From NCBI GenBank assembly GCA_964019425.1, contig OZ025789.1, forward strand, positions 62,001 through 126,000: DNA of 64,000 nt, written 5' to 3'. The DNA is from Flectonema sp. DT1601 (taxonomy: Eukaryota). The translations under genes were made by a program, and so were the position numbers. Below are positions 1 through 64,000 of the stretch, in pieces; the first letter of the stretch is position 1; each line of letters opens with the position of its first letter. Below the pieces are notes generated by a model. The model saw only the letters and a program-made list of their open reading frames with translations. It was not told the origin of the DNA and did no database searches.

Positions 1-3000
1 CCGTCCTTGTGGTTGCAGCATTTCTCGTCAGGGTACACCGCGCACGCCTTTCTGGAGCACGTCAAGCTCTGTTGGCTCCACTGGCACAGCACATCCTTCG
101 AGCACTCCGTTTCGTCCGCGTGCTGGCAAGGGACCCCCACGCAGGTTCCCTCCCCGCACGCCTCGTCCCACTCGCAGCCAGCTTCTTGGTTGCAACTCGT
201 CTTGTCAACTTGCGTGCAACGGGTTTCGATGCACGATCCGTTCACAGTGTCCCAAGTACAGTCGAAAGTGCTGTCCGCAATGCAACTCGGCTCATCCGGG
301 TGCAGGCAAGGGGTGTCGATGCACTTGTTCCCAGTCGCGTTCCACGAGCACTTGTCGTTCTGATCGCATGCGTTCGGATCCGAAATCCCTGGACACACCT
401 CCTTGTTGAAGCACTCCAACACCGTCGAGTTCCAATTGCAGTCGCCCGTCGAGTTCGCACACTGTTCCTGGGTGCAGTGCTTGACACACGGAGAGTCGAG
501 ACACGCGATCAGCACATCAGACCACTTGCATCCCACGTCTGATGAACACGGCACCTTGTTTCCGTAGTTGGGGCAAGGGCGGTGCACCCCGGCCTGTTGG
601 GCCTGCGTTTGCGCCGCAATCGCCGCCTGGTCAACGATGAGGTGTCCCCATGGACCGTTCGGGTCACAGATTCCGTTCAACGCCTTGTCCGGAACCTCGT
701 CGATCATCAGGTTCAAGAAGTGGTCGTCGTGTGGGTCCGACGTGATCGGCTTCAGCGAAGTTTCCGCATCGATGTCATTCTGCGTCAGCTGGTTCGTTCG
801 CCTCACCACGATCCCGAACGTCTGCACATCCATTCCGTCGAGATCGTTCTTCGCCTGCGCGAGCTTATCGTCGTCCTGGATCTTCCCGTCGGTAATGATG
901 ATCAGCACCCTCTTCCTTCCGTCAACAGGCGACGACGACTTGAAGATGCTTCCGGCGCGCACCAGCGCCTTCTCGATGTACGTTCCAGCCTCGAGGTAGT
1001 TTGCCTCGTGCCAGTCAACGTCAGCAGACAGCTCCGCCAAGTCTCCAGTCAACCGCCCCCCGGCTCCGACTCCCACAGGCGGAAAGGCCACCGAGTTCAC
1101 AATATCACCGAACGTGAAGTGCTCAGGGTGTCCGGAAAACTGCACCAGCGCCACACGAAGCTTCTCGGATCCAGCTCCCGAGTTCGACCCGACAACTGCC
1201 TTCTCGCCGCTGAGAGGCAGCGTCTTTACCCAGTCCCGCACCATCTCCATCAGCGCGTAGAACCCGTGAGGATGGCGTCCGAAGTTCTGGCTCATCGAAC
1301 CAGAACCGTCGAGGATCATCACCACGTCCAGCGTCGGGCACTCCCCGTAGGTCACCTTCACGCAAGATCCCTGTTGCGGTTGCGACGCCAACGCCTTCCA
1401 GTAGCATTTCTCGTCCTCAACACAGTCGCACTTCTCGAGCTTGTTGCAGTCTTTCTCGATACACTTCGTCCGGTCCTTGTCCCACGCGCAGTCGCTGTCA
1501 GCTTCGCACGTCGGTTCGTCCCGGAGCTTCGCGCACGGCTTCTCCACGCACATCGCCGGGGAGATCGACGGGTTCCAGTGGCAGTCCTCAATCCTGTCGC
1601 ACTGGATCTCGGTCATGTACTCCGTGCATTTCTTCTGTACACACCCCGTCGAGTTGGTGTTGTTGTTGTTGTCCTTCCACTCGCAGTACGGGTCAGCCAC
1701 GCAAGGGTCCTTGCGGTCCGCCTTGCATTTCTCTTCCACACACGTTCCGGCGGTAACTTCAACCCGTCCACTGGCGTCCTTCGGGTCCACGCAAAGCTCC
1801 CCAACTCCTCCCCATTCGCAGATGTACCCGTCGATTCGCTGGTGGTCACCTGGGAAGTCGTTCCACTCGCCCGAAGGCCAGCGGAAGTGCGCGTAGTTCT
1901 CTCCCTCGGTAGCACACGATCCCGGACACGCTCCCTTGTAGTTGTTCGGCTCCCCCGCTTCCCAATTCGTGTACATCGGCTTCCCGGTATTCGCATCTGT
2001 CGCCGCGACGAAGCTTCCCCCGCTTCCGCTTCCAATCACCAGACCCACCTGTGATGTCAGGTCGCATCCGCTTTGGTCGGCGGCGTAGGTACACCCGCCG
2101 TCCAATCCCTCCGGTCCGACAACCCATCCCCACCGTCCTTCGTCATTCTTGTCCGCCGCTCCCATCCATCCCTGGCCCTCGAGCTTCATCTTCGCCACCT
2201 GATCTTCCTCCTCCGAGGTGATGGTGATCAGGTACCCGCGGAGTCCCAGGATCATGTTGTCGGCGGATTCGCACTCTGCCTGCGCCTGTCCCCAGTGGCA
2301 CTCGCTCGCCGTAGGGTCGACGTTCTGGCATTCCGTCTTCGAGAAATAGTGGTAGTAGTGTCCAGTCGCTGACGACAGGAACCCGTGACCGTAGTTCCAA
2401 GTGATCTTTCTCGGAGATCCGGCGTCCGACGTCGTCGTGAAGGTCACCGTCGCGATCGCCGCAGCGTACTCGGCCATCGTCTTCGCCGTCGTCGACTTCA
2501 AGTACAAGACTCCAGGAACGTCGTGCCACTCTGCCTCGAACCCGAGGCCCGCGCACTGGTCGCAGGCGAGCACGTCTTTCCCCTTCACGTATCCCTCTTC
2601 GACATCAACTGCTGCTCCCTTCACGGTGTCCGAGCAGCTGCACTTCCCCGAAACGGTGCAGCTCACCGTCGGGAACGGAACCATCGGTTGTCCACGGGCG
2701 TACGCCGACACAGTCGAGTTCAAAGGAATCGTCGTCTGCCACACGCATCCATCTTGCGACGCGACGCATGGTCCCTCCTCAGTCTCCTTGCAAGGGGTCT
2801 CAGTACATTCCTGGTTAAGGTTGTTCCACACGCAGTCATCTGGATCAGCGAGGCATCCCTGTTCGTTGTCTCGGTTGCACTTCTTGTCCACACATGTTGA
2901 CCCGTCCTTGTCAACCTGGCAGTCCTTCTGCTTCTTGCAATCCTCTGGCTTTCCAGTGTAGATCTCGCACCCCGTCTTCGGTTCCCGCACGCAGATCGTT

Positions 3001-6000
3001 CCGTTTGCCCACATGCACCCGTTCGCGGCATCTGCCGTGCAGTTCTTCTCCTCGCAGTGGTGCAGACACGGACTGTCACCGCACGAAAGAGAGTTGTCGA
3101 ACCACACGCATCCAGGGTCCGCCAAGCAACCCGCCTGCCGCAAATGCTGCGGGCAAGGTTGGTGTACGCCTCCGCTCGCAGGGTTCGCTCCCCCCGATCC
3201 CTGTTGGGCCGCCTGTCCAAGAACCAGCGATCCGAAAACGCCGTTCGGGTCACAGATGTCGCCGAGCACCTTCTCCGGAACCTCATCAATCTGCAGGTTC
3301 TGGAAGTGAGCGTCATGCGGGTTCGACGTAATAGGCTTCAGCGTCTCCTCCGCGTCGAGGTCAGCCTTCGTGTGCTGGGCGCTCCTACGAACAACCACAC
3401 CGAACACCTTCACCTGCTCGGTGTCGAGCTCGGACCGCGCTTGCTGCAGAGTGTTCGGGTCGTAGATCCGACCATCGGTGATGATGATCAGCACCCTCTG
3501 TCTTCCGTCGTTTGGAGACTGGTGGAACATGTCGGCCGACATCTGGAGACCCTTCTGGATCATCGTTCCTCTGGAGTAGTAATTCGCCTCGTGCCAGTCA
3601 ACATCCGCGCTCAGCTCGTCGAAGTCTCCCGACAGCCTCGTCTCGGTTCCGGTTCCTGGAGGGGTCCCCTTCGCGTCCGCCCGTCCACTCGATGGGCCGT
3701 TCTTGTTCTTCCCCGAGAACTGGATCAATCCCACTCGGACCTCGCCCGTGTTGGCAGCAGAGTTCAGGCCCACGTCTGCCTTCTCACCGTTCAGTGGCAA
3801 CGTCTTCATCCAGTCGCGGAGCATCTCCATCAGTCCGTAGAATCCATGCGGGTGGCGTCCGAAGGGCGCGGACATCGATCCAGACCCATCCAGCAGCAGC
3901 ACCAGGTCGAGCGTCGGGCACTGACCGAACTTGGTCTCAGTACAGAACGGTGTCGGAGCAAGTGAGTTCCAGAAGCACTTCGTCTCCGCCAAACAGTCGC
4001 AGCGGTCGAGGTCCTTGCAAACCTTGTCAACACACTCGGTCGAGCTGTCGTTGAACGTGCACAGCGGGTCGGTGTTGCACGCCGGCTTGTCCTGGTTCAT
4101 CGTCGCGCAGTGCTTCACGCTGCACTGCGCCGGTGTCAGCGACACGTCCCAGTGGCAAGACGAGTCCTTGTCACAACATCTTTCGTCCGAGTGGACCGTG
4201 CACTGCTTCAGACCACATGCGTTGCTTTTCCACTCGCAATGCTGGTCCGAATTGCAAGCCTGCTCCGTCAGTGCAGGGGCTCCAGGAGCCGCCGCACAAC
4301 GCTTCTTGATGCACTGGGCTCCGTCCGTCACACCGTCGCACCCGTCCCACTCGCAGAGCGCATCGCTGTTGCACGCGCTCGAGTTCGTGTGTTTGCACGG
4401 CTTCTCCACGCACATTTGCTGAAGGCCGTCCCACTCGCAACCATTTGGATCGAGGTCGCATTCCGCCTCCGTCTGCTGGTTGCAGATACGCTCCTCGCAG
4501 TCCCTCTTCGTCTGGTTCCAGTCGCACTTCTGGTCCTTTTCGCAAGTCACGTCATCCTGGTACGAGCACAACGGATTCTTCCAGCATCCCTCGAGACCGG
4601 CCACCGACGCGTTCCAGTAGCAGTCGTTTAGCGTATCGGCTGTGCACCGAGTTTCGTTGCAGTGCTCCACGCACGGCGAGTCAACACACTCGAGTCCGAT
4701 CGAGCTGAACACGCACCCAGCGTCCGCCGTGCACAGCACCTGGTCCACGTACTGCGGGCACGGCTTGTGCACTCCAGACTGGTTCTGCGCCGCTGCTCCC
4801 GGCAGCAGGAGGGCTCCCCACTTGCTGTTCGGGTCGCAGAGCCCGTTCAACACCGTGGTTGGCAGCTCGTCGATCATCAGATTCTCAAAATGGTCGTCGT
4901 GAGGATCAGACGTGATCGGCTTCAGCTTCTCCTCCGCGAGGGTGTCCACTGATGTATGTGTTGCCTGCCTACGGAGAACCACTCCGAACACCTCAACGCT
5001 TTCCTGGTTCAGAGTCGCCCTCGCTGATGCGAGCTTGTCATCATCCTTGATCGCACCGTCGGTGATGATGATCAGCACCCGCTTCCTCCCCGCGGGGCTC
5101 GCGCGGAACATGTCCCCGGCCCATCCGAGACCCTGGTTGATGTACGTACCCGCCTGCAAATAGTTCGCCTCGTGGTAGTCGATGTCTGACTGCAACTCCG
5201 TCAGCTTTCCAGTCAACGACCCGAACGAACCGACTCCGATAGGGCTCTTGATCGCCGCCTTGTCTACAGCCGTTCCGCCGCTGATAGGGATTCCAGAGAA
5301 CTGGATCACCCCCATGCGCATTCCTCCGTTCGGCGCCGTCGAGTTCGCCCCCACCTGGTGGCTCTCCCCGGTCAGCGGCAAGGTCTTCACCCAGTCACGA
5401 ATCATCTCCATCATCGCGTAGAACCCGTTCGGATGGCGTCCGAAGTTCTGCGACATCGATCCTGATCCGTCCAGCAACAACACCACGTCGAGCGTAGGGC
5501 ACTGCCCGTAACGGTTCTCCACACATTTCCCGCTTCCCGAAGACGTGTCCCAGAAGCACTTCGGCTCCGCCTTGCAGTCGCATCTCTCGAACGGATCGCA
5601 CACCTTATCAACGCAGCGGTTGGCCCCGTCGTCCCACACGCAGTCGTCCTTCACGTTGCACGTCGTCGGATCCTTGTTTTTGTTGCAGATCTTCTCCGTG
5701 CAGAGCGACGGCGACACGGTCACGTCCCAGTGGCAGACCGGGTCCTTGTCGCACTCCTTCTCGTTCGGAATTTCGACGCACGGCGCCACCACGCACGGCT
5801 CGACATTTCCTCCCACCCACGAGCACTTGGGGTTGGCTTTGCAGTCTGTTTCCGTGTCGTTCACGCAGGCCTTCTCCACGCACACTCCAGCAACCAAGTC
5901 CGTCACTCCCGTCGCGTCGCTCACGTCGGCGCACATCTCACCGATTCCTCCCCATTCGCAGATGTACCCGTCGATTCGCTGGTGGTCTCCCGGGTAGTCG

Positions 6001-9000
6001 TTCCATTCGCCCGAAGGCCACAGGAAGTGTCCGAAGTCCTCACCGTCCTTGACGCACGATCCCGGGCACGGTCCGCGGAAGTCATTCGGCTCGTTGTTTG
6101 CCCAATTTCCGTACATGTCCCTCCCGGTGTTCGGGTCAACCGCCGGCGCGAAGTTGCCCCCGGTACCGGAACCGAACGGCAATCCCTTCTCAGAAGCGAG
6201 GTTGCATGAGCTGCTGGTACTCGAATACTGACACCCTCCGGCAGCTCCCTCTGGTCCAGTAACCCAGCTCCATGTTCCTTCCTCGCCAACGTCGCTTGCT
6301 CCCATCCATCCCTGACCTTCCAGCTTCATCCTCGCTACCTCGTCTTCCACCTCGCTCGTGATGGTGATCAAGTACCCGCGGAGTCCCAGAATCTGGTTCG
6401 AGTCCGAAGCGCATTGTTCCTGGGCATCGCTCCACGTGCACGCCCCGCCAGCGCAAGTCGACTTCGGGTAGAAGTGGTAGAAGCTGCCAGTGTGCGACGA
6501 GTAGAATCCGTGACCGTAGTTCCAAGTGATCCTCCTCTTCCCGGAGTTGTCTGCAGAAGTGCTGAACTCGATGCTGGCAACCGCCTTCGCCAACTCATCC
6601 GCCGTTCCGGTCGAAATCGTCAGCATCCCGCTCACCGCGTGCCACTCGGCCGTCAGCCCCAGCGACTTGCAAGCAACACAAGTCAGCGTGTCCTTCCCGC
6701 TCAGATATCCGTCCTCGATGTCTACCGTCGCTCCCGGAAGCACATTCGAACCAATCGTCGTCGTGCAGCTGCACCCGTTCTTCCAGCTCCCAGGGGTCTG
6801 GCAGGTCAGTCCCTCGAACGGCTTCACCGCAACGTCCTTCTCATACGTCATTTGATTCGCGAGGTTCCCAACTGCCCCAGAGCCACTCGACCAGTCACAC
6901 ATCGGGTCCGCCGCGCAGTCAGACTGCTTATCGTGAAGGCACGGCTTCCTCGAGCACCCAGGCGTCGGGAGATCCTTCCACTCGCATCCCTCAGGGTCCG
7001 ACAAACACGTCTGCTCGTTGTCGTGCTTGCACGGGTCGTTGGTGCACTCTGCGGCCTTCGCAATCGAGAAGTCGCTCGACGGCGGCGGGCACACGCATCT
7101 CCAATCGTCGGTGCTGTTCACCGAAGTGTTCGGATCGAAGCAAGTCTGCTGGCAGTCCAGGCTTCCCGCCCGACAGTCTACCGTGCACTTGAACCCGTTC
7201 GTGTCGCACTCGTCCTCCTCACATTTGGCAGGCTTCCCAGTCGCCACGTTCGACGACGGAGGTGGGCACTTGCAGAGCCAGTCATTCGTCGACTGCAAAG
7301 TCATCTTGGGGTCCTCGCACTCCTGTCCGGCATCAGAGCAAGTGCTTCCCGCGCAAGTAGGGCACGTCTGCACGCACTCGTCGAGAACACACTTCGCCTG
7401 CTGCGTTATCGCGATCCCGACTGACGGTGGCGGACACATGCATTCCCAGTCGTGCAACTTCGCGGCGTTCGGGTCCCGACACGTCTGCCCGACTGCTCTA
7501 CACGTAGCTCCGTTCTCAACACACTCGTCGACTTCGCAAGTCGCCACCGGAGCTCCGGTCATCACCCCCGAGGTCGGCGGCGGGCACTCGCACTTGAAGT
7601 CCTTCTGCGGAGGACACGTCTTCACGCTGTCGAAACAAGTCTGTCCAGCCACCAAGCAAATCGTATTGTTTCGGCACTCGTCGCACACGCAGTCCGCCTG
7701 CTTTGCCGTTGCCACTCCCCTCCCTGGGTCGACGCACGTGCACATCCAGTCAGAGACCGAGTCAACCGACTTGTTCGGATCCTCGCACGTTTGCCCAACG
7801 CTGGTGCACGTGTGCGAGCCACCCTGTTGCGTCTGCGCACAGGTCGAGCACACGGCCACGCACTCGTCCAACTGGCACTTGGCAGGAGCCGCCACCGCAG
7901 GGGTTCCCACCTGCGGTGGCACGCATTCACAGGTCCAGTCCCCGAGGTCCGTGTGCGACTGCTTGTTGTCCACGCACAGCTGTCCCTCCGCCGAGCACAC
8001 GTTGGTCGGGCTGGTGTCGGTTTGCGCGCAGGTAGGGCAGGTCACGACGCACTCGTCCAACAAGCAGTCGGTCGGCGTTCCCAAAGTCACGTTTGTTCCG
8101 ATTGCCGGTGGGGCGCACATGCATACCCAGTTTCCATCAACCATCGGGTTTGGGTCGTCGCACACGAACCCGAGATCCGTGCACTTCTTCTTCGCATCAT
8201 CATCGGTGTTGCATTCTCCCGGATACTCGCAGTGCGCAGGAACCTGTTGCCCGCGTACCGCCGCAACCGCAGGAGGAACCACGCACACGCACTCCCAGGT
8301 TCCCCTCGTCTTCTTGTCGTCGTCAACGCAGACCTGTCCAGCTGCGGTGCACACCTTCTCGTTCTTTGGGTCGTGGCACTCGTCGTCTTCACACGGCGTT
8401 GCAGCTGCGGCAATCGCGATGTCCGTCGCCGGAGGCGGACATTTGCACACCCAATCCGACAGCGAGGTCGCGTCGTGGTTCGGGTCGTGGCAGGTCTGGT
8501 TCTGGCTCGAACACGTGTCGTTCGCACACGTGGCGCACACCTTCAGACACTCGTCGATATTGCAGTGCGCAGGTGCCGCGTGACCTAACCCTGTCATGGG
8601 AGGGATGCACTCGCATGTCCAATCTCCAGTCGAGGAAGCGGTCTTATCCGGATCGTGGCATTTCTGCTCGCCGGTTGTCGCAGTCTTGCAGACGTCCTTC
8701 TCGCAAGTCGGGCAGTCCTTCTCGCACTCATCCAGCAAGCAGATCGCTGGTCCCGCGGTCATCGTTCCGTTTGTCGGCGGAAGGCACTCGCACTTCCAGT
8801 CTCCCTGCTGATTAAAGTTTGGATCGACGCACCGCTGCCCGACGTTCGCGCAGATGTCCCCGTGGAGCGTGCACTCGTCAACTTTACAGTCTGCACGACC
8901 CCCGACGTTCGTCTTGTTCGAAGGCGGCGGGCAGATGCACATCCAGTCTCCCTTCGAAGCGGCGTTCATGTTTGGGTCGAGGCAAGTCTGATTCTTGCAC

Positions 9001-12000
9001 GTGTCTTGCTGGACCACACACTCGTCGATCTTGCAGTCCGCCGCTGCCGCCGTCGCCTTTCCAGTCGATGGTGGAGGGCACGTGCACGTCCAGTCGCTGT
9101 GGTGCGTCATCGTCGGGTTCGGGTCATTGCAAGTCTGCCCCACGCTCGTGCACGTGTCGTTCGCACACGTTGGGCAGGTCGCCACGCACTCGTCGAGCCT
9201 GCAGTTCGCCGGCAGCTGCGAAGGCTGCGCCCCCGAAGGGAAGATCGTCGTCGGCGGGATGCAGTCACACACGTAGTCGTCTGGCGAACACGGATCCTTG
9301 TTCGGATCGCTGCAGCTCTGTCCAACCGCCGTGCATCCAACTCCCTTGGTCTTGCACTCATCGTAGATGCACTTGTTGCTTTCCCACGTGCATCTCGCGT
9401 CAGCGTTGCACTGCTGCTCGTTGTACTGCGGGTCATTCGTAACGAACTTACATGGACAGGTCGGGTCCTCGGCCTTCGAGCACGTCGCGTTCTGCGAGTT
9501 CCAAGTGCAGTTGTTTCCCTTGTCGTTCCTGCAATCCGGTTCCAGACAGTGCATCAAGCATGGCGAGTTCACGCACAGCCCACCGACATCCGACCACACG
9601 CACCCCGCGTCCTGGGAGCACGGCGTCTCCGTCACGTAGTCCGGGCAAGGGTGGTGCACCCCGGTCGTCGGCTTTGGAGGGTCTTTCGCGATCAAGTGTC
9701 CCCACGGACCGTTCGGGTCGCAGATCGATCCAATCAGGTCTGGGATGTCGTCGATCATGATGTTGCGGAAGTGCTCGTCATGCGGGTCTGATGTGATCGG
9801 CTTCAGGGTCTTCTCGGCGTCAAGGTCGGCTTTCGTGTGCTGATCCTTCTTCCTCACAACGATACCAAAAGTCTGCACACCCTCACGGTCGAGCTCAGCG
9901 CGAGCAGGTGCCAGCGACTGCTCATCGTAGATCCTACCGTCGGTGAAGATGAACAGGACGCGCTGCCTTCCGTCCACCGGTGAACCGTGGAAGATGTCCC
10001 CGGCCATTACCAGCGCCTTCTCAATCATCGTTCCCTTCTTGTAGTAGTTGTTCTCGTGGAAGTCGAGGTCCGCGTCCAGCTCCCCCAGCACCCCGGACAG
10101 CCTTCCGTTGGTCGTCCTGGCACCCGAAGCCGTCTTCGCTTGGCTGCGGCGGTAGTTCTTCCCAGAGAACTGCACGAAGGCGACACGCACCCCGCCATTG
10201 TTCGCTGCCGAGTTCAGCCCGACAGACGCGTCCTCGCCGTTCAGCGGTAGCTTCCCGACCCAATCCCTCATCATCTCTACCAGCGCGTAGAACCCGTGCG
10301 GATGGCTCCCGAAGGTCGATGCCATCGATCCCGATCCGTCGAGGATCACACCGATGTCGAGAGTTGGGCACTCTCCGAACTCAATCGCCACGCACTGCCC
10401 CTGACCGTTCAATCCCGCTCCCGGTTTCCAGTAGCACTTCGAGTTCTTGTCGCAAGGACAGCGGGTCGGGTACTTGCTGCAGTCGAGGTCCCTGCACGTT
10501 CTCTTCGCATCGTCCCACATGCAATCAGTTTCGTTGTTGCACGTGTCCTTGACCCCGATCTTCGGACACTTCTTGTCCCCACACACCGGAGGGGTCACAG
10601 TGATGTCCCACTTGCATGCATCCTTGTGGTCGCAGCATCTTTCGTCGAGGTATTTCGCGCACAAGTTCTCCTTGCAGCTACCGACGACCCCGGTGGCGTC
10701 CCACGAGCAGCGCGAATCCGCCGTGCACTCCCCCGCGTTCGTGTGCTTGCACAGGACCTCCTTGCACGACGACCTCGTGCCGTTGCAGGCGTCCGCCGAC
10801 CACGCGCAGTTCGGATCCGTCTCACAGGTAGTCTTATCCGGGTGCCGGCACTTCTTCTCCACGCACTGGTCCTTCCCCCGCACGTTGATCCACTCGCAGC
10901 TGTCGGGGTCGTCCAAGCAGTCCTGAATGTTGGTGTTCGGCGTGCACTTCTCCTTCTGGCACTTCGGGTCCTTAACGTTGTCCCACACGCACTTCTCTGG
11001 CGACTTCACGCACTCGGCAATCGTGGTGTACGCGCATTCAGTCTTCTTCCAACAATCCCCAGTCGTCGAGTTCCACGCACACAGGTTCACCGTGTCGGCC
11101 GTGCACGTAGGATTGTCACAGTGCGCTGTGCACGGGGAGTCGGCGCAAGCCGTCGATGCCGTGTCCCACACGCACCCGGCGTCCTGCGTGCAATCGTGCG
11201 TGTCGGTGTAGTGATCGCACGGCTTGTGCAACCCACTCTGCCCAGGTGCGTTCGTCGACGACACAATCAAGTGTCCCCACACTCCGTTCGGATCGCAGAT
11301 GTCCGCGAACACCTGCGACGCCACCTCGTCGATCTGCAAGTTCTGGAAGTGGTCATCGTGTGGGTCTGACGTGATTGGCTTCAGCGTTTTCTCGGCATCA
11401 GTGTCGGCCTTCGTGTGTCCGGATTGGCGACGCAGCACGATACCAAAGGTCTGCACCTGCTCCTGGTTCAGTACCTGTCTTGCCGGGGCCAGCACATCCG
11501 GGTCGTAGATCTTTCCGTCGGTGACGATGATCAGAATTCTCTTCCTCGAGCTCACCTTGTGCGAACGATCGAACATGTCACCGACCATTTCAAGACCCAG
11601 CTGGATCATCGTACCCTTTCCGAGGTAGTTGTTCTCATGCCAGTCAAGGTCGTCGTTAATCTCACTTTCGAGACCACTGAGATGTCCTCCAGTGCCAGTA
11701 TTTCCTCTAGTTTCGATGGCGTTGCTGCTTCCCCGAGACCACGGCCAAGGCCATCCGCGATTCTTCCCAGAGAATTGCACGAAACCGAGACGCACACCTC
11801 CCGTCAACGGACCTCCCGGCGTAGGCGACGCCGCCGGCTCCCCAGTCAGCGGAAGGGTCTTCACCCAATCACGGAGAATCTCGACTAAAGCGTAGAACCC
11901 GTGCGGGTGACGTCCGAAGTTCCTCGACATTGATCCCGAACCGTCGAGCAGCAGGATGATGTCCATCACAGGGCACTCCCCATATTTCTTGTCAGCGCAC

Positions 12001-15000
12001 TTCACACCACTCCAGAAGCAGTCTGGATCTTTCTTACACGCGCATTCTTCCATCTTGTTGCACACCTTGTCCACACACTCATTCTTCGTGCTGTTCCACA
12101 TGCATAATCCGTCGCCATTACATGGGTCTACGTGTGCGGTAGTCGGGTACGTCGATGGGCAGTACTTTTGCTTGCACACCGCAGGCGCCTGGCTGACATC
12201 CCAGTGACAGCTGTCGTCGTGGTCACAGCACTTTTCATCCGGGTAGTTCACGCACGGAGCAGGCTCGCAAGACAGCTGCTGGCTCCACACGCAGTAGATG
12301 TCCGCCTGGCAACCTGCCTGATTCTTGTGGCTGTCGAGGGTGCACCTCTTCGGAACACACTTCTGGTCCACCGGGTCTGCGCACACGTCGTCCCAAGTGC
12401 AGGCCGGATCAGCTACGCACTCGGTTTTGTTGTAGTAGCAAGGCGTCTTCACGCAGTCTGGCGGTCGCAGGCTTGTGTCCCACATGCACTTCTCTCCGAG
12501 ATTCACGCAAGCATCCTCCGTTGTTGCATCGCACTCCGGCTCGAAGCAAGCAGGGTCCTTCGCCTGATCCCATTGGCACTTGTTTGACTTGCAGTCCGGC
12601 TGGTTCTGGAAGTCTTTGCACACAGCCTTCTCGCACTCGGAGGTTGCGCTCCACAAGCATTTGTTCGTCGGATCGGTTGTGCAATTTTTCTCCTCACAGT
12701 GCGAGAAGCAAGGGTGGTCCTCACATTTTAGGCTGATGGAATTCCACTGGCACGTTTTCTCCGCGTCGCAACTCACCAACGCTCCAATTTGGCTGCAAGT
12801 TGTCACCTGTGGAGTCGAAGATCCCTGCGTGATGTACGTTCCGAACGGGCTGTTTGGATCACAGAAACCGTCCATAATCGAAAGTGCTTCGTCCACTTGC
12901 AGTGAAAGGGCGTGTGTTTCTTTAGGGTTGGAAACAATCTCCTTCAACGTCACCAAGTTCGCCATGTCACGTGCGGTCGCGCTCGCTCGGCGTCTAAGGA
13001 GGATCCCGAATACCTTTACTCCCTCCGCTGCCAATACCCGACCGGCAGGTCCAAGCTCATCCTTGTCCATGATCCTTCCATCGGTGATGATCAGCAGCAC
13101 CTTCTGTCTATGCGCCGGTGATTCCTTGAAGATCTCACCTGCCCACTCCTCCGCCTCCTTCACCTTCGTCTTGCACCGGAGAGCTTCTCCCTCGTACCAG
13201 TCGAGGTCCCCAAGGAGCTGGCTCCTGTCACCGGTCAACTTTCCGCACGTGTCAGCCACAGCCGGAGTCGTTCCCGGAATGATACTCAGCGTTGGGATAC
13301 CGTCTCCCTTCGTCACCCCATTCTTAGGATTGCATGAGCACGTAGGGCACTGCGCAACGCGAACTCCTGTGTCCCACGAGTTGAAGGCCACACGAAGCTT
13401 TCCTCCCTTGACGTCCGAGCTGATCCCCTTGGTCGAATCCTCGCCGGTCAGGGGAACCTTCTGTACCCAGTCCCTCATCACCTCCATCAGAGCATCAAAC
13501 CCGCTAGGGTGACGCCCGAATGTCTTGTCCATCGAGCACGATGCGTCAAACGACACCACCACGTCGAGGTCGGGGCAGCTCGAGTACTTCTGATCCACAC
13601 AAACTATAGGGCTCACCGACCTGTCGACGATGCAGCGAGGGTCCTCCGTGCACAGACACACCATGTCCTTAGCATCGAACAGCGCCGGTTTGTTGTAGTC
13701 ACTGCACAACTTGTCCACGCATTTGTTCGCAGCATCATCCCACCTGCACAATCCCTTCTGGTCAGTGTTGCAGCTGTCCTTGCCCGTGTGCTTGTCGAAG
13801 CAGTACTTCTCCACACACAACCCACACCCAACAGCGTCCCAGTCACAGTCCGTGTCACGGCTGCACGTCACCTCGTCAGCGTGTTTGTAGCACTTCGTCT
13901 CAGCACAAGCCGCACCGTCCCAGTTGCACGCGGTATCCGCGAGGCACTCCGCCTGAATCGTCCCCGTGCAGCGCTTCTTGTGGCACAGCGGGTTCGCCCC
14001 GTCCCCCCACTCACATTCAGGATCCCGACTGTTCTCACATGAGCCCTGGTCGGTAAACTGACAAACCTTGTTGATGCACGAGTCGCTCACGCAGTCCCAG
14101 TCGCACAACCCGCTCGGGTCAGCCAAGCACTTCTGCTCATCCTTGGTCTGGGTGCAGTCCGGCACCGTCGGGTTGCAGGTGCCAGTCGAATAATCCCACT
14201 TGCACTTGTCGTCGGCGTTGCAGGGCCCAGGCGCGAAGTGTTGGCATTTCTTTGGATCACACTCTGCCGGCACCTTCGTTGTGTTCCAGTCGCACAGATC
14301 GTCCTGAACGCAATCCTGCTGCTTTGGGTACTCGCAAACCTCGCGCTGGCACTTGTCCTGGTCCCAGAAGCATCCAGTTGCCCTATCACACTCCGGCTTG
14401 AGGCAGTGCTTCTCGCATTCAGTCGTCACACACATTCCGTTCGCCGTGTTCCGCGCTCCCGCCGTGCAAGTCACCGACCCTCCGGCGAGCATGCAATTCT
14501 CGCAAACGAATCCGGAAGCCTTCTGCGTCGCCGAAAGCTCCAAGCAGTTCAGGTTCAGGCACCCATCGGCCGCAGCACACTTCTGGGGAACCTGGTCCTG
14601 CCAGTCGCATGCCTGGTCCGCACGGCACTCCAGCTTCACTCCCCACTTCGAACACGGGACAGAAGCACCGGTCGCCGGCGGTGTCGTTGAGCCTCCCCCC
14701 TGGTTCTGGTGCGCCTGGATTGCTGCCCCAAAGCGGCCAGCAGGGTCGCAGAAGTCCTTGAACACCTCCTCCAACATGTCGTCCAGCGGAACGTTCACAA
14801 AGTGGTCATCGTGCGGATCCGAAGTGATCGGCTTCAGGGTTTTTTCCGCATCCAAGTCATCCTTCGTGTGTGCAGCACTCTTGCGTACCACTACACCGAA
14901 AGTGATCACATCCATCGCATCCAAGTTCTGTCGGATCCGTGGGATCTCGACACTGCTCTGCGGCTCCTTCGGGTTCATCGCCCCGTCGGTGATGACGATC

Positions 15001-18000
15001 AGAACGTGCTGTCTGTGCGATGGCGATCCCTGGAACACGTGCACTGCATCCTCCAACGCCTTTGCCATGTAGGTTACCGACCCCATGTAGTTCGTCTCGT
15101 GCCAGTCCAGGTCGACGTCCAGCTCGCTGAGTTTCCCACTGAGCTCTCCATCAGTGCACGTACCTTTGGGAACAGGATCCCTGCACTTCCTGCTCCGTGT
15201 GCACCCCTGGTTGTTGTTCTTGCACACCCAGTACTCGTCAGTTCTCGAGAACTGCACGAACGCGAGACGGAAGGTTCCTCCGACCACCGTCGATCCCTTC
15301 CCGACCGTGTGATCCTCCCCCGTCAGCGGAAGGGTCTGCATCCAGTCGCGCAGCATCTCCACCATTCCAAAGTATCCGTGAGGGTGCTTCCCAAAAGTTC
15401 CGCTCATCGAGCCAGATCCGTCCAGCACGAACACTACGTCCAGGTCGGGACAAGCCGACACGTGCACATCCCTGCACTTCGGGCTGGCCGTTGAATCCCA
15501 GTAGCAGTTCGGTTGCTTCGTGCACTCGCAGTTCTTCAGGAAATCGCTGCACTTCGCCGTCTCACAGTAGTCTCCTTTGGAGTCTGTTCCCTTCTTGCAG
15601 TTCGGGTCGCTCTCGCAGCTATCCGCCACCTTGCTCGCAGGCGGGTAGTTCGCGTTGTGCGCCACCGTGCAAACCGTCGGTTGGCACGATGCAGGCGCCG
15701 TTGTGGTGTTCCAGTGGCAGCGCGGGTCGTGGTCACAACCAACAATGTCGTTTCCGAAGCTTGGGCAGTAGTCTGTCACGCACGGAGTCGTTCCGTCCCA
15801 CACACAAAGCGGATCCTGGTTGCAATTGTTCTGGTTCGTATGCACCTTGCACTTGTCTACTTCGCACTGATTGCTTTTGGTGTTCCACTTGCAGTTCTCG
15901 CACCCAGCTGCGTCGCAAGGCTGCTGGGCAGTGTACGAACACAGTTTCTCTGAACAAGCTCCGTTCTTCCATTCACAATTCGAGTCCACTCCGCAAGTCC
16001 CCGGGGTCGTGTACTGACACCGGCTGTCACGGCACTCAGTTGGCAACGAGCAGTTGTACACACACTGCGGGTCCGCGAGGCAGTCTGCTTGCGACTTCCC
16101 ATCACACGTCGGGACCTGCAAGCACACAGGTGGGTCAACTCCCGTGTCCCACAAGCATTCCGTCTTGTTCAGGCACGCTTCTCTCACGAACACAGCGGCG
16201 CACGGCTTCTTCGAACAATCCCTAGTGTTGTCGTCCCACACGCACAGCGAGTCCGCGTCTCCCTCGCAGTTGGTCTTGTCGGTGTGCTCGCACACTTTCC
16301 TCGTGCACTCCTTCGGCGTTCCCGACCACGCGCATGCAGGGTCCTTGTCACAGCAATCCTTCTCGCAGCAGTCCTTGCAGTGCGTCGTTCCGCAGGTCCC
16401 GTCGATCGCTGACACCACTCCAGCACCGCAGATGACCGTTGCCCGCTGCAGCTTGCAGTTCGCACACCGGTACAGCCCCGTGTACTGGCTCGGAACCGCT
16501 TGGCAATTCAACTCAGGACATCCGGTCGGCGAGTCGCAAGTGCGGAGCTTCGGCTGCTTCCACTCACAGTACTTGTCGGCGTTGCACTCGTCTTTGAATC
16601 CCCATGTTGCGCATGGGAAGTGCGTGCTGTCCACAGGTGGGATGAGAGACCTTCCAATCGGACTCGACGGGTCGCAGAAGACGTTCAGCAGTTGGCTCGG
16701 AATCTCATCGAGCTGCAGGTTCAAGAAATGATCGTCCTTCGGGTCCGTAACCAGCGGCTTCAATCTCAGTTCCGCGTAGTCGTCCTGGTGGGTTCTCTTG
16801 GTGAACCTCCGCATAACCACACCAAATACCACCACTTTCTCCCGACGGAGGTCCTGCTGCGCCTTGTTGAGCATCCCAGGGTAGGTCGGCTGCCAGTTCT
16901 GGTCGCATCCGAACGGACACTGGTTACACGAGTTCCCGGAGCTGCACGCGTCTCCATTGATGTCCGTCAGCCCTCCATCGGCGATGATCACTACAATCTG
17001 CTTCCTGCCTGGCGGCGAAACCAAGAATGTGTGGTCGGCCACGTCCTGGAGTGCGTCGTGGATGTAGGTCCAGTGACGCTGGTAGTTCGCCTCGTGCCAG
17101 TCGATATCCCCCATCAGCTCCTGCAGGTTACCAGACAGCAAACCGTCAGTGCACTGCCCGATCGCGCAATTCGTCGGGTGGTCTTCATCGGGGCGAGCGT
17201 TCGCCTTCGAGAACTGGATGAATGTGATACGGAAGGTTCCTCCCTTCACACTCGATTGGGCCCCCACCGTGTGGTCCTCCCCCGTCAACGGCAAGGTCTT
17301 CACCCAGTCACGAAGCATCTCGAGAAGAGCGGTGTATCCGTGGGCGTGGCGTCCGAACGACCTCCACATCGATCCCGAACCGTCGATTATGAAGGCGACA
17401 TCCAGGTCCGGGCACTGAGCCAGCGAAGGGATCGCGCAGTGCGGGTTTTTCGGGTCCGTAGCAACCCACGTGCAGTCGGGGTCCTCGCTACACTTACACT
17501 CGTCCTTCGGGTTGTTGTACTTGTCGCACGTCTTCACAGCACAGTACGCAGGGTTCGCCTTCGTTTGCCACATGCACTTGTCGTCGTTCAGGCACGCCGT
17601 GTTCGAGTATCCTCCGCACGGGGTTTGTGTGCACACCGGCGGAGTACCTGTCGTGTCCCAGTGACACGCCGTGTCCGCGTTACACGAAACGTCATCCGGA
17701 TGCTTCACGCAAGGCCTCTCCACACATTTGTCCAGCGCCGTGTCCCATTCACACTTGCCGTCGGCATTGCAGGTCGGGGCACTCACGTACAGGCAGATCT
17801 TCTCCGCGCAGTACTCAATCAGCGTCGACGGAGGACCGGCTGGTGGAGGAGTCTGTACCGGAACCCACTCGCATCCGTCTTCGGCATTGCAGGTTCCCTC
17901 CTTGGTGTGCAGACACTTTTTCGGATAGCACTTCGGGCTCTTGCTCGGGTCGTACTCGCACACGCTCAGGAAACAGTAGTCTGGATCCCCAGCTGGCGGG

Positions 18001-20519: not shown

Positions 20520-20731
20520 CTTCAAATCTGAAGACAATATATTCCTACTGCGTGTGTCTTATATTGAGTTGTGAGGCTCTTCTGTTGATGTTTTATATGT
20601 GCGTATAATGAACTATATTTATTTATTTATTTATATTTCCGTATAATCTGGTAGGTGGGGAGGGAAAATAAAGTGATTCTTGTTGTGGAACACGATTGCA
20701 AAATTAAATACCGCTGGAGGCCACGTGAACA
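1..20731. repeat. Near-perfect direct segmental duplication, left copy (partner 38776-59506)
   Basis: Same sequence and same shadow-ORF pattern at +38,775. Identity ends after ...ggaggccacgtgaaca (20731 / 59506). Confidence 0.97.
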
Positions 20732-20795
20732 AATAAATCGATAATACGAAAATTGAAGAAAATAAGACTGCAAGAAATAAAAAAACAACTGAAAG

Positions 20796-20856
20796 CTGAA
20801 GTCGTTGCATTCATATATTTCAGAAGAGAGAGGAAGAGAATAAGAAGAAGAAGACT
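20796..20856 (-). promoter_or_regulatory. Putative polypyrimidine tract + CAG (candidate trans-splice/3' processing signal) upstream of copy 1
   Basis: The plus-strand (GAA/GA)-rich run is TCTTCTTC...CTCTCTCTTC on the coding strand, followed by ...gacttCAG 277 nt before the ATG. A homologous element is present at 63223-63312. Confidence 0.4.
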
Positions 20857-21174
20857 GTCAGATATATCGAATTAACGATTCCGGTTACAAAACTACATTC
20901 TGCATGAATGACGTGTTAGTTAGCCTTAATTATTATCAATCAAATGCAAAAAATCGTTAAGGCAACAAACAAATAATGGTTGGGTCAAGAAGTTAGTTAA
21001 TTAGAACAAAACTGACGACTACGAGGGGTCCGGGTAGCCCGCAGTAAGAACCCAATCGCGAAGATTGTAGTTTTATACATAACTGCGTCGGATATGTTTA
21101 TATTGAGAACAAGTACTCTCATAAAGTAGATCGTTGTTTTTTTTTAAGTGAAAATTTTCACATAGGTACAGTAA

Positions 21175-21655
21175 AACAATAAAAAATGCAAGCCCTAACA
21201 CAAAGGGGAACGTGAAGGAGGGGTACCTGCCAAAGTACTTACTTTTAGTCATTGGGAACACATCATATTTCCAGTAAGCTGCTTATCAGAATGTTTGCCG
21301 ACACCGATTTGAGCCTCATGTGGACAACGTGATGATGACTTTTTTTTCCCTCCAAACATTAGTCCGCTTTCACTTAGCACTGCATTTCATGGAATAGAAA
21401 AAAGAAAAGCAGACAATAGAAACAAGGTACATGCCATACTTTTGAAAATAACAAAATCAAATAAATTGAAAAATAAAGATGGATTGCAGAACCCCTAATT
21501 CAGCGATTCATAATCCGATTTCATAAAAGAAAACACGGCATCATCGATGGAAGCCGCGCCACTGACTGTTGCACATTGGGATTTGAGATATTCCTTTCAT
21601 ATGTTATACGACAATACAATGTGAACAAAACGTGGTAAACAACAAAGGGAGGGCA
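21175..21655. repeat. 3' flank/UTR block of the giant gene, repeated at 63481-63975
   Basis: aacaataaaaaatgcaagccctaacac...ggtaaacaacaaa is shared at high identity, with a few indels. Confidence 0.95.
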
Positions 21656-21890
21656 GAGGGGGCGGGGATAATTTGATACTAGAATGATATCTTGGTGGGG
21701 AGGGTTGAAGAAAGGGGGAGTAGGGAGGGAATCATGTTTCCACTTCCGTAAAACTACAATATAATATAAAACCGTTTTTTTTTGTTTTTGTTTTTTACGA
21801 ATTGGCAACTTTAATAAAAACAAGATCAAGATATGGAAATCACAAAAAAAGTTGTTTCGTTTCTTTCGTTTCATTTGATCCTCAAAAACC

Positions 21891-36800: not shown

Positions 36801-39800
36801 GTTTCCATTCGGCAGCTTGTTCGTTGGGATTCCACTGAACTGGACAAATCCGACACGCGCCTTCCCGTCGAGCAACGGAGAGCCTCCGGCAGGCACCCCG
36901 CTCAACGACAGCGACTGAACCCATGTCTTCAGCATCTCCATCAGTCCGTAGAATCCGTGAGGGTGCACTCCGAAGCTCTGGCTCATCGATCCGGAACCGT
37001 CAACCACCAGCACGATGTCCAGCGTCGGGCACTCTCCAAACTTCGACGTCTTGCAGGTTCCCTTGTCCCAGTAACAGTCCCCATCCTTGCGACACCTGCA
37101 CACCTCGAACTCCCCGCAGTTCTTCTCGACGCAAGTATTGTTCAGCCACATGCACTCTCCGTCCTGGTCACACGCCCCCGGTTCACCGTATCTCTTGCAG
37201 TACTTCACCTCGCAGTCAGTTCCCCAACTGCACAGGTCGTCCTTTCCACAAGTCTTTTCATCGGGATGCTCCTTGCACGGCTTGAACGTGCACGCGTTGT
37301 TCTTCCACTCGCAGATTCCTCCGTCCTTCTCCTCGCACTCCACCTGCTGACCCCAGCGGCACTTGATCGTTTCGCACAGGTCTGCGTCCCTATTCCAAGT
37401 GCACTCGGTGTCGTTGTTGCAGAACACCGGCTCGAAGTACACGCAAGGCTGCTTGCTGCAATCCTTTCCGCTTTCGTTCCACACACACGGTCCCTTCGGG
37501 TCCGCCAGACATCCCTGCTGGTTGTCGTGGTCGCAGATCTTTCCGATGCACGTCTTCTTGTCCGCAGGGTCCACCTCGCACTTGTCGTCCTTCTCGCACT
37601 CCACCGTGTCCGGGTGGTTGCAGAGCTCCTCCTTGCGACACGCACCGAGCGTCTGGTTCCACACGCAGTGGTTGTCGGCGTCCGCTGAGGTGCAGTTGTC
37701 CTGCTTGCAGTGCGCCAGGCACGGAGAATCTCCGCAGGACAGCGTCCGGTCGAACCACACACACCCGTCGTCTTTGTTGCAAGGATCCTTGCTCGCGTAC
37801 AATGTGCATGCCACCCCGTCGCTCGTATCCGCGATGAACTTGCCCCATGCGTGGTTCGGATCGCACAGACCCTTCAGCGCCGAGGCCACCTCATCGACCT
37901 GCAGGCTCTGCAGGTGCTGGTCCTTCGGGTCCGACAACGCTCCCGACAACGTCTGCTGCGTCTTCACATCGTCGGTTGACACCGTGCTGAACGGCCTCAA
38001 CGCGATCCCGAACACGTGAACCTGCGCCTGGTCGAGCGCCGCCCTTGCCGCCGTGTACGAGTCCTTGTCGTTCAGCTCCCCGTCTGCCACGATGATCAGA
38101 ACCCTCTTCCTTCCGTCAAACGGCGACGTCTGGAACAAGCTTACCGCCTTCTGAAGACCCCCCAGCAAGTACGTCTGCTTCAGGTCCGGCTGGGCCGCCG
38201 CACTTTCCCCCATGAAGTTCCCCTCGTGGAAATCGGCATCCGCCTCCACCTCGCTCAGCACTCCGCTCAATCTCCCACCGCTTCCCGTCCCCGGCGGCGA
38301 TGACAGCGCCTGCTTTTCGTCGCTCGAAGGCCACTGGCTGCTTCCCGCGAACTGCACCATCGCCAACCGCATCGCCTTCGTCTGCGGCATGCTCGTCGTC
38401 CCGGCAGCCTCCCCACTCAGCGGCAGGGTCGCCGCCCAGTCCCGCACCACTTCCACCAACGCGTAGAACCCGTTCGGGTGCCGTCCGAACGCCCGGCTCA
38501 TCGAAGCCCCTCCGTCGATCAGGAGCACCACGTCAAGCGTCGGACATGTTGCGTACCGCTGGAACGTGCAGTGCGAACCACCGTCCGAGATGCTGAAAAA
38601 GCAGTCCGGATCAGCGTCGCACTCACACTTCTCGAACTCTCCGCAGTCCTTCTCCACGCACTTGTTGTCTTTCCACATGCAATCCCTCTCATCGCTGCAC
38701 GCAACTTGCTCGCCGAACTTCCTGCATGGGAGCTCGGCACACACCGCCGGCGCCTGCTGCACGTCCCAGTGGCATCCGTCCTTGTGGTTGCAGCATTTCT
38801 CGTCAGGGTACACCGCGCACGCCTTTCTGGAGCACGTCAAGCTCTGTTGGCTCCACTGGCACAGCACATCCTTCGAGCACTCCGTTTCGTCCGCGTGCTG
38901 GCAAGGGACCCCCACGCAGGTTCCCTCCCCGCACGCCTCGTCCCACTCGCAGCCAGCTTCTTGGTTGCAACTCGTCTTGTCAACTTGCGTGCAACGGGTT
39001 TCGATGCACGATCCGTTCACAGTGTCCCAAGTACAGTCGAAAGTGCTGTCCGCAATGCAACTCGGCTCATCCGGGTGCAGGCAAGGGGTGTCGATGCACT
39101 TGTTCCCAGTCGCGTTCCACGAGCACTTGTCGTTCTGATCGCATGCGTTCGGATCCGAAATCCCTGGACACACCTCCTTGTTGAAGCACTCCAACACCGT
39201 CGAGTTCCAATTGCAGTCGCCCGTCGAGTTCGCACACTGTTCCTGGGTGCAGTGCTTGACACACGGAGAGTCGAGACACGCGATCAGCACATCAGACCAC
39301 TTGCATCCCACGTCTGATGAACACGGCACCTTGTTTCCGTAGTTGGGGCAAGGGCGGTGCACCCCGGCCTGTTGGGCCTGCGTTTGCGCCGCAATCGCCG
39401 CCTGGTCAACGATGAGGTGTCCCCATGGACCGTTCGGGTCACAGATTCCGTTCAACGCCTTGTCCGGAACCTCGTCGATCATCAGGTTCAAGAAGTGGTC
39501 GTCGTGTGGGTCCGACGTGATCGGCTTCAGCGAAGTTTCCGCATCGATGTCATTCTGCGTCAGCTGGTTCGTTCGCCTCACCACGATCCCGAACGTCTGC
39601 ACATCCATTCCGTCGAGATCGTTCTTCGCCTGCGCGAGCTTATCGTCGTCCTGGATCTTCCCGTCGGTAATGATGATCAGCACCCTCTTCCTTCCGTCAA
39701 CAGGCGACGACGACTTGAAGATGCTTCCGGCGCGCACCAGCGCCTTCTCGATGTACGTTCCAGCCTCGAGGTAGTTTGCCTCGTGCCAGTCAACGTCAGC

Positions 39801-59294: not shown

Positions 59295-59777
59295 CTTCAA
59301 ATCTGAAGACAATATATTCCTACTGCGTGTGTCTTATATTGAGTTGTGAGGCTCTTCTGTTGATGTTTTATATGTGCGTATAATGAACTATATTTATTTA
59401 TTTATTTATATTTCCGTATAATCTGGTAGGTGGGGAGGGAAAGTAAAGTGATTCTTGTTGTGGAACACGATTGCAAAATTAAATACCGCTGGAGGCCACG
59501 TGAACATAGTCGAGCATACCTGGGAAAAAATTAACGGCTTGCAGGTACCCCTTTTAAACTAAACAGGATTTTATTTATTTATTTATTTATTTTTTTCGTT
59601 CTCTCCATAGAGTTATTACAGTTCTACGGAGTAAAGAATAAAGAAATCCATACAAACATAACACACAACACAAAACGCATATATAAGCACACCACACGTG
59701 TAATCACGAAAATTGAGTTTTTCTGGGACCCCAGACAAGAAATAATTCTATTGTCAAGTATCCTTTATCAATTAAGA

Positions 59778-60653: not shown

Positions 60654-62129
60654 CTGAGTTGATGGTTTTGTTTTGTTTTGTTTTGTTTTGTTTTGTTTTG
60701 TTTTGTTTTGTTTTGTTTTGTTTTGTTTTGTTTTGTTTTGTTTTGTTTTGTTTTGTTTTGTTTTGTTTTGTTTTGTTTTGTTTTGTTTTGTTTTGTTTTG
60801 TTTTGTTTTGTTTTGTTTTGTGTTGTTTTGTGTTGTTTTGTTTTGTTTTGTTTTGTTTTGTTTTGTTTTGTTTTGTTTTGTTTTGTTTTGTTTTGTTTTG
60901 TTTTGTTTTGTTTTGTTTTGTTTTGTTTTGTTTTGTTTTGTTTTGTTTTGTTTTGTTTTGTTTTGTTTTGTTTTGTTTTGTTTTGTTTTGTTTTGTTTTG
61001 TTTTGTTTTGTTTTGTTTTGTTTTGTTTTGTTTTGTTTTGTTTTGTTTTGTTTTGTTTTGTTTTGTTTTGTTTTGTTTTGTTTTGTTTTGTTTTGTTTTG
61101 TTTTGTTTTGTTTTGTTTTGTTTTGTTTTGTTTTGTTTTGTTTTGTTTTGTGTTGTTTTGTTTTGTTTTGTTTTGTTTTGTGTTGTTTTGTTTTGTTTTG
61201 TGTTGTTTTGTTTTGTGTTGTTTTGTTTTGTGTTGTTTTGTTTTGTTTTGTTTTGTTTTGTTTTGTTTTGTTTTGTTTTGTTTTGTTTTGTTTTGTTTTG
61301 TTTTGTTTTGTTTTGTTTTGTTTTGTTTTGTTTTGTTTTGTTTTGTTTTGTTTTGTTTTGTTTTGTTTTGTTTTGTTTTGTTTTGTTTTGTTTTGTTTTG
61401 TTTTGTTTTGTTTTGTTTTGTTTTGTTTTGTTTTGTTTTGTTTTGTTTTGTTTTGTTTTGTTTTGTTTTGTTTTGTTTTGTTTTGTTTTGTTTTGTTTTG
61501 TTTTGTTTTGTTTTGTTTTGTTTTGTTTTGTTTTGTTTTGTTTTGTTTTGTTTTGTTTTGTTTTGTTTTGTTTTGTTTTGTTTTGTTTTGTTTTGTTTTG
61601 TTTTGTTTTGTTTTGTTTTGTTTTGTTTTGTTTTGTTTTGTTTTGTTTTGTTTTGTTTTGTTTTGTTTTGTTTTGTGTTGTTTTGTTTTGTTTTGTTTTG
61701 TTTTGTTTTGTTTTGTTTTGTTTTGTTTTGTTTTGTTTTGTTTTGTTTTGTTTTGTTTTGTTTTGTTTTGTTTTGTTTTGTTTTGTTTTGTTTTGTTTTG
61801 TTTTGTTTTGTTTTGTTTTGTTTTGTTTTGTTTTGTTTTGTTTTGTTTTGTTTTGTTTTGTTTTGTTTTGTTTTGTTTTGTTTTGTTTTGTTTTGTTTTG
61901 TTTTGTTTTGTTTTGTTTTGTTTTGTTTTGTTTTGTTTTGTTTTGTTTTGTTTTGTTTTGTTTTGTTTTGTTTTGTTTTGTTTTGTTTTGTTTTGTTTTG
62001 TTTTGTTTTGTTTTGTTTTGTTTTGTTTTGTTTTGTTTTGTTTTGTTTTGTTTTGTTTTGTTTTGTTTTGTTTTGTTTTGTTTTGTTTACTTAAAACTCT
62101 CTGGAAAAAACAAAAAAAGAACAACAGAC
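60654..62129 (-). other. 1,476-nt phase-0 GT-AG intron of the carboxylesterase
   Basis: Starts GTCTGT and ends AACTCAG on the minus strand. Removing it restores a continuous full-length esterase. Confidence 0.88.
60666..62085. repeat. (TTTTG)n / (CAAAA)n pentanucleotide microsatellite, ~284 units
   Basis: Directly visible; 8 TGTTG variant units at 60821, 60831, 61151, 61181, 61201, 61216, 61231 and 61676. Confidence 0.99.
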
Positions 62130-62954: not shown

Positions 62955-63222
62955 ATTTTAGTTGGAACTCTGTTTTAGAATAGAAAATTAAAAGTTAACT
63001 TAAAAAAAAAAGGAAAAAAACGAGCAGAGCGTACTTTCAAAATGATAGAACATCATATTAGCTAGTAGATAGGTATATTTGATAACTACAATCTCCTTAA
63101 CGAAAAACCTTAAATCAATAATACGAAAAATGAATAAAATAAAACTTGTCCAATACAATTCGATACTATTGAGCAACAGCATCAATAAACTGAAATAGCA
63201 ACAAATAAAAGCAACTGAAAAA

Positions 63223-63312
63223 CTGAAGTAGTTTCATTCATATTTTTCAGAAGAGAGGGCAGAGAGAGGAAGAGAACAATAAGATGAAGAAAGAAGAAGA
63301 AGACGAAGAAAT
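63223..63312 (-). promoter_or_regulatory. Putative polypyrimidine tract + CAG upstream of the carboxylesterase
   Basis: Homologous to 20796-20856; the CAG lies 269 nt before the esterase ATG. Confidence 0.4.
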
Positions 63313-63480
63313 GTCAGATATTTCGAATTAACGATTCTGGTAACAAAACTACATTTTGCATGAAGGACGTTCTCCACACAAAACCCATTGTTTTGTTTCT
63401 TTTATTTTTGTGGATTTGTTTGTTTTTCTTCTTCTTTTTGTTTTGGTGATGAAATTTGCTAAATAGGTAGGGAACAGAAT

Positions 63481-63975
63481 AACAATAAAAAATGCAAGCC
63501 CTAACACAAAGGGGAACGTGAAGGAGGGGTACCTGCCAAAGTACTTACTTTTAGTCATTGGGAACACATCATATTTCCAGTAAGCTGCTTATCAGAATGT
63601 TTGCCGACACCGATATATTGAGCCTCATGTGGACAACGTGATGATGACTTTTTTTTCCCTCCAAACATTAATCCGCTTTCACTTAGCGCTGAATTTTCAC
63701 GGAAGAGAAAAAACAAAAAAAAACAAAAAACAAAAGCAGACAATAGAAACAAGGTACATGTCATGCTTTTGAAAATAACAAAATTAAATAAATTGAAAAA
63801 TAAAGATGGATTGCAGAACCCCTAATTCAGCGATTCATAATCCGATTTCAAAAAAGAAAACACGGCATCATCGATGGAAGCCGCGCCACTGACTGTTGCA
63901 CATTGGGATTTGAGATATTCCTTTCATATGTTATACGACAATACAATGTGAACAAAACGTGGTAAACAACAAATG
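63481..63975. repeat. Second copy of the giant gene's 3' flank block; implies another gene copy beyond the right edge
   Basis: Matches 21175-21655 at an offset of about 42.3 kb. Confidence 0.93.
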
Positions 63976-64000
63976 GGAATGGGTGGGTAGGGCAGAGAGG

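Follow-up and report, generated by a model that had tools for sequence, protein, structure and literature searches.

Tandem copies of a 37.4-kb gene for a giant vWA-domain protein in Flectonema sp. DT1601, likely part of a longer array homogenised by gene conversion

A 64,000-bp stretch of DNA from Flectonema sp. DT1601 (contig OZ025789.1, assembly GCA_964019425.1), called the window here at its full length, contained two head-to-tail copies of a 37.4-kb gene for a giant protein. We read the locus as a diplonemid tandem array, likely of three copies or longer, in which the 37.4-kb open reading frames (ORFs) were homogenised by gene conversion and an esterase gene was lost from one of the spacers; the probability of this reading is put at roughly 0.6.

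Two copies of the giant gene in tandem

The tandem layout was seen as one long repeat. Self-BLAST of the window aligned positions 1-20731 with 38776-59506 as a single ungapped repeat of 20,731 bp, 99.961% identical, with a period of 38,775 bp. The spacer from the stop codon of copy 2 (21891) to the ATG of copy 1 (20519) was 1,371 bp, and the sequence-only reading, which had called a tandem of at least two copies, was right in these coordinates. Both copies lay on one strand in assembled sequence with zero N bases, which is the head-to-tail form of a euglenozoan tandem gene array. The two copies were separated by eight substitutions (10508, 10511, 10731, 11886, 12085, 16359, 18604 and 20668) and no indels. 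Seven of these were coding, four of them altering a residue, and the eighth, at 20668, was located in the 212-bp 5' flank that the copies shared. Five of the eight were bunched within 1.6 kb (p = 0.006, or 0.04 with two adjacent sites merged), and a run of 10.5 kb was identical between the copies. The 5' flank of copy 1 also contained a pyrimidine-rich stretch with an AG at 20648; this position and 59423 are candidate trans-splice acceptors.

The two-copy tandem is very probably real. It does not seem to be a mis-join, because an erroneous join by way of the repeated flank should bring the esterase gene into the short spacer. In run X1 (share 0.20), four depth-2 contigs covered 57840-59442 and three of them also 19500-20667, with no other letters, and none of the X1 depth-2 contigs spanned either junction. 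The last X1 contig stopped one base before the sole flank difference between the copies (20668/59443), as would be expected of two reads with one variant each. However, three other contig breaks sat where the copies agree and X1 may itself come from the source sample, and the break pattern was given no weight.

A diverged 3' flank behind an esterase gene

Upstream of copy 2, the spacer contained a carboxylesterase gene and, beyond it, a repeat of the 3' flank of the giant gene. The sequence-only reading had placed this flank repeat at 63481-63975 and had taken it as a sign of a further copy. The repeat was real and longer than that, reaching the window edge: 64000-63111 was collinear with 21661-20734 over 721 matches, 46 mismatches and 284 gap columns. 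Identity was 468/481 (97.3%) near the stop and 165/181 (91.2%, with many indels) distally, while the middle was poorly alignable, and the mismatches rose from 13/481 near the stop to 16/181 at the distal end (Fisher p = 0.0012). The flank repeat was far more diverged than the ORFs and stood behind the esterase gene, of which the earlier reading had said nothing. The ORFs diverged by 0.04% and the flanks by ~6% plus indels, a 100-fold contrast. Extrapolation from the flank repeat placed a third stop near 64,230, and on this ground a third copy of the giant gene, which the sequence-only reading had also called probable, is indeed probable, but the flank also fits a two-copy history and the third gene would lie outside the window.

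Between the two spacers of the window, the esterase was present in the long one only, and the short spacer equalled the long spacer minus ~3.6 kb. A second esterase was not found among the proteins searched, which were 157-503 amino acids (aa) long; both esterase ORFs of the window were singletons, with the best other match at 48%.

Homologues and multicopy relatives in diplonemids

The named strong homologues of the giant protein were all from diplonemids, namely Diplonema papillatum, Flectonema neradi, Rhynchopus, Namystynia and a Hemistasia-coded transcript. The euglenozoan origin proposed from the letters alone thus held, and the placement among diplonemids rests on these named homologues. 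The first search had returned 19 matches, including D. papillatum and the Hemistasia-coded transcript, the three weakest being unrelated and cysteine-free. The F. neradi homologue was 75% identical over 2,350 aa and those of D. papillatum 41-51%. Transcripts of F. neradi, Rhynchopus and Namystynia matched the giant protein, and therefore the family is transcribed in relatives.

The orthologue cluster of D. papillatum consisted of 12 members, five of which included the C-terminus and were located on five contigs. Over their final ~910 aa, these C-terminal versions were 92.7-99.2% alike; two of them were almost identical, which left at least four distinct versions. The differences were mosaic, with versions up to 7% apart in the C-terminal part, and the 97 differences between P0051 and P0050 all lay from residue 3,775 onwards. 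The D. papillatum strain is described as haploid in the part of PMC10161547 used here, which also reports unidirectional, probably co-transcribed gene clusters, transcripts carrying spliced leaders and a median 3' untranslated region (UTR) of ~800 bp. The part of the D. japonicum genome note drawn on here (PMC13598402) makes no mention of tandem genes or ploidy.

In a tree of 14 C-terminal rows, midpoint-rooted and with two long branches, the copies grouped by species, with support of 100/100 for D. papillatum and 99/96 for the window. Among ten clusters of more distant family members, four contained full-length paralogues 96-99.9% alike on equal-sized contigs, four were singletons and two had their members on different contigs. 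In these multicopy counts, P0031/P0033 were left out as two halves of one gene, P0048/P0049/P0043 were taken as one locus, and the F. neradi and Rhynchopus isoforms were kept out of the count, since they may represent alleles or variants of the assembly. Two more distant D. papillatum paralogues, P0063 and P0066, were 56-60% identical to P0048, and the giant-protein family therefore also has older duplicates.

Proposed history of the array

The ancestral repeat unit would have comprised, in order, the giant gene, its 3' flank, the esterase and the 5' flank. One unit would have lost ~3.6 kb including the esterase, so that a spacer of 1,371 bp remained. The 37-kb ORFs would be kept alike by conversion or unequal exchange, which would spill over into the flank next to them, whereas the distal spacer would drift. 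An older array with conversion accounts for the contrast between ORFs and flanks, the gradient along the flank, the clustering of the differences and the grouping by species. Mosaic variation and species grouping were both observed, although the same tree is expected under independent recent duplications. With the genes all on one strand, co-transcription and trans-splicing would be expected, and with every additional copy more of a megadalton surface protein would be made.

By analogy, selection for dosage is possible, at somewhat less than even odds. Dosage is the usual explanation for arrays of this kind. It is favoured here by the near-identity of the proteins, whereas the different 3' flanks leave room for different regulation, and copy number may drift neutrally. 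A wider proposal can be made only tentatively and is probably not right in full: an array of an undescribed megadalton adhesin with 19 integrin-type I-domains and three lectin modules would have been kept since before the split of the Flectonema-like and Diplonema lineages, conversion would homogenise its coding sequence of 37 kb and leave the 3' UTRs to diverge, and copy number together with UTR variants would set the stage-wise amount of the main attachment or prey-binding coat.

Evidence on the third copy and alternative explanations

A second C-terminus of the giant protein was represented by P0041, a 2,742-aa piece 99.9% identical to copy 2, from which it differed by a single substitution and by a frameshift of one base near aa 9,731. 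The frameshift sat in a short C run and may be either a consensus error or the mark of a broken copy. P0041 was recorded on a 100,320-bp contig, and the same size was recorded for both esterase ORFs of the window; therefore this C-terminus most likely lies on the window's contig, outside the window. It would be the end of copy 1 (stop at -16,884) or of copy 3, and we lean to copy 1. A window flush with the left end of its contig would be expected to yield an edge-cut product of 6,839 aa; this product was absent from the protein collection, which included proteins up to 7,575 aa as well as cut products, and its absence argues against such a position. No near-identical upstream piece of the giant protein was present in the best 150 of 164 matches (50% representatives).

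Both spacers can be explained without a third gene by a single duplication of the block of flank, esterase and giant gene, with deletion of the second esterase and later homogenisation of the ORFs; 63111-64000 would then belong to an unrelated upstream gene. The negative search for a second esterase agrees with such a history, and P0041 can then be the end of copy 1. We regard it as rather unlikely, since homology reaches the window edge and the breakpoint is thereby forced into the 229 bp after the stop, since the highest flank identity beside the predicted stop is not predicted, and since relatives carry four or more versions. The sharp breakpoints and the 0.04% divergence would be produced by a recent duplication of a 38,775-bp block (5' flank, gene and 3' flank) within an older pair of gene-esterase units, with no conversion, with a more diverged paralogue as the third copy and with a copy number that may be neutral; four non-synonymous changes among seven coding differences are also as seen in very young copies. 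The differences were clustered rather than even, and the second esterase predicted behind copy 1 was not found, which is informative only if the contig extends there, so this origin is judged improbable.

Other explanations concern the assembly. The tandem of two may be real while its spacer has or lacks the esterase according to haplotype or strain, with an assembler switch inside the 37-kb repeat mimicking three copies. The 10.5 kb identical between the copies and the frameshifted C-terminus on the contig would suit this case, the 37-kb repeat exceeds most accurate long reads, and the source may be something other than a haploid clone. Spacers ~6% and large indels apart around ORFs that differ by 0.04% would, however, make odd alleles, D. 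papillatum is reported to be haploid, and the tandem would still be real; we give this explanation a low probability. A single chromosomal copy is the case in which the junction came from a chimeric read, from a false duplication or from a 38.8-kb extrachromosomal circle assembled in line. Circles of such a kind are known in Leishmania, and neither a read nor a contig was seen to cross the junction. Against it stand the eight substitutions between the copies, the distinct C-terminal variant P0041 on a contig of the same size, a short spacer that copies no other stretch of the window, and the multicopy state of the orthologues, which together make it very improbable.

Several points weigh against the reading of a homogenised array of three or more copies. 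The third ORF would lie outside the window and is predicted from the flank repeat, and the end of copy 1 is no less likely a source of P0041. Three complete copies need ~118.5 kb, which exceeds the 100,320-bp contig, and therefore any third copy would be cut by the contig end. The frameshift of P0041 implies consensus errors or a broken copy on this contig, and across the 10.5-kb stretch identical between the copies an assembler may not phase. The grouping by species equally fits independent recent duplications, and tandem adjacency in the relatives is inferred only from equal contig sizes. Finally, domain content and analogy are the basis for adhesion, the signal peptide and dosage.

The giant protein

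The predicted product of copy 2 consisted of 12,467 aa with a mass of 1.35 MDa and 1,026 Cys, encoded in 37.4 kb. It began with a hydrophobic N-terminus, where a signal peptide was judged by eye, and ended with an EGF domain, a predicted membrane helix at ~aa 12,392-12,425 and a short acidic tail. A single strong hydrophobic stretch was found near the C-terminus and was conserved in the orthologues. The 37.4-kb ORF had no intron, and several homologues from other assemblies ended in intron-like read-through sequence, which suggests intron gain or loss within the family.

A self-built profile identified 19 vWA domains, and PF00092 matched all 18 of the units scanned. The full metal ion-dependent adhesion site (MIDAS; DxSxS-T/S-D) was kept in 16 of the 19 domains. 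Identity among the domains was 26-64%, and the internal repeats are therefore old. In the predicted fold of one unit (pLDDT 82.7), a Rossmann vWA domain was followed by about nine small helix-hairpin modules, and the best matches of the vWA repeat were integrin I-domains (profile E 9e-10; fold E 2e-9, target TM 0.74). In addition, there were three C-type-lectin-like modules, one of which passed the PF00059 cut-off (22.8 vs 22.6) while the others scored 19.7 and 18.5; all three carried the EPN sugar-binding motif, and their lectin matches in the PDB were weak. The protein also contained 172 CxW motifs and 12 EGF-like repeats. The ~30-aa Cys-rich CxW module (35487-37022 on the minus strand, residues 235-512) was modelled confidently as a helix plus hairpin; it matched no Pfam family at cut-off, with single weak PSI and Paramecium surface antigen matches.

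From these domains, the giant protein is most naturally taken as a membrane-anchored adhesion or binding protein that would attach to substrate, prey or mucilage through its integrin-like vWA and lectin-like domains. The part of PMC5845003 used here describes how diplonemids glide and attach and form mucilaginous coats, and the giant protein would, in our view, be a concrete candidate for a role in gliding, in attachment or in the sticky coat of the sessile stages. No papers on the family were found in a search with subscription journals and bioRxiv supplements outside its range, and the family seems to be undescribed.

Comparison with known systems

The array is of a type already known from trypanosomatids, and the head-to-tail layout on one strand and the euglenozoan host of that type were present here. 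Array units of tubulin, histone and transporter genes are far smaller than 38.8 kb. In the parts of the account of trypanosomatid tandem arrays consulted here (Jackson 2007, PMC1855330), the copies likewise stand head to tail on one strand, are more alike within species than between species and vary in patches; likewise an unrelated gene interrupts an array, and dosage was proposed for genes without promoters of their own. According to the same parts, the T. brucei arrays surveyed were highly variable and had effects other than dosage. The present array differs in a unit of 38.8 kb with a 37.4-kb ORF, in its diplonemid host, and in a co-transcription that is predicted from gene layout. It also combines near-identical ORFs with diverged spacers, whereas the consulted parts of PMC1855330 give that pattern only for histone arrays. 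Although tandem arrays are ordinary in euglenozoans, the scale here is unusual, with no less than 75 kb of almost identical coding sequence given over to a single 1.35-MDa protein, and it is chiefly the giant protein that is of interest.

The D. papillatum proteins DIPPA_03389, DIPPA_26127, DIPPA_07896, DIPPA_24042 and DIPPA_01852, together with the automatically named 'Halomucin' and 'Teneurin-a', were collinear with the giant protein at 37-53% identity over aa 5,700-12,467. They shared the same membrane anchor and tail, existed in several near-identical versions and were orthologous. They differ in being annotated in fragments on short contigs, with automatic names and no function given, and the intact ORF of the window thus provides a full-length model for these genes. 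Four of the DIPPA identifiers, 'Halomucin' and 'Willebrand' were not mentioned in seven supplementary files of PMC10161547. Gene replacement is possible in D. papillatum according to the part of that paper used here, and therefore function and dosage are testable in that species. Integrin alpha I-domains (integrin alpha1/alpha2), collagen VI and ANTXR have the Rossmann vWA fold and MIDAS in common with the giant protein, but only this domain is common, at 15-23% identity; a beta-propeller or collagen helix was not found in the giant protein, in which the 19 vWA domains are strung on the ~30-aa Cys-rich modules.

Other features of the window and a second giant family

The features of the window are listed in Table 1. 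A segment at approximately 20915-21133 occurred only in the short spacer and had no counterpart in the other; three X1 contigs matched parts of 20942-21077 with gaps and mismatches, and the segment may be a dispersed repeat. Long plus-strand ORFs were dismissed, since they merely shadow the microsatellite and the GC-rich coding strand. For the esterase, one splice choice yielded an open frame with GxSxG and HGAE. Its single intron of 1,476 bp consisted nearly entirely of a (CAAAA)285 microsatellite, and the closest homologues found were 43-48% identical and located on short contigs.

Table 1. Positions of the giant-gene copies, their flanks and the esterase region in the 64-kb window
Feature	Position	Strand	Evidence or remark
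Copy 1 of giant gene, first 6,839 codons, open at left window edge	1..20519	-	differs from copy 2 at 4 residues
5' flank of copy 1, 212 bp, common to copy 2 except 20668	20520..20731	-	
3' flank of copy 2, fused to 5' flank of copy 1 at 20731/20732, junction without long repeat	20732..21890	-	
Copy 2 of giant gene, complete uninterrupted ORF, 12,467 aa	21891..59294	-	
5' flank of copy 2, 212 bp; near-identical duplication ends at 59506	59295..59506	-	
Two-exon carboxylesterase gene with GT-AG intron 62129-60654, predicted product 567 aa	59778..62954	-	Pfam COesterase E 1e-67, 1.5e-18
Pentanucleotide microsatellite, GTTTT x 284.8, filling esterase intron	60665..62088	.	
Diverged repeat of the giant-gene 3' flank, upstream of esterase	63111..64000	-	collinear alignment

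A second giant family of diplonemid type was also encountered (P0002-P0016 and P0020-P0040), with proteins of 4,500-6,700 aa that contained few vWA domains and ~60 EGF-like repeats. Near-identical members of this family were located on equal-sized contigs, and its cluster 4 comprised 11 members.

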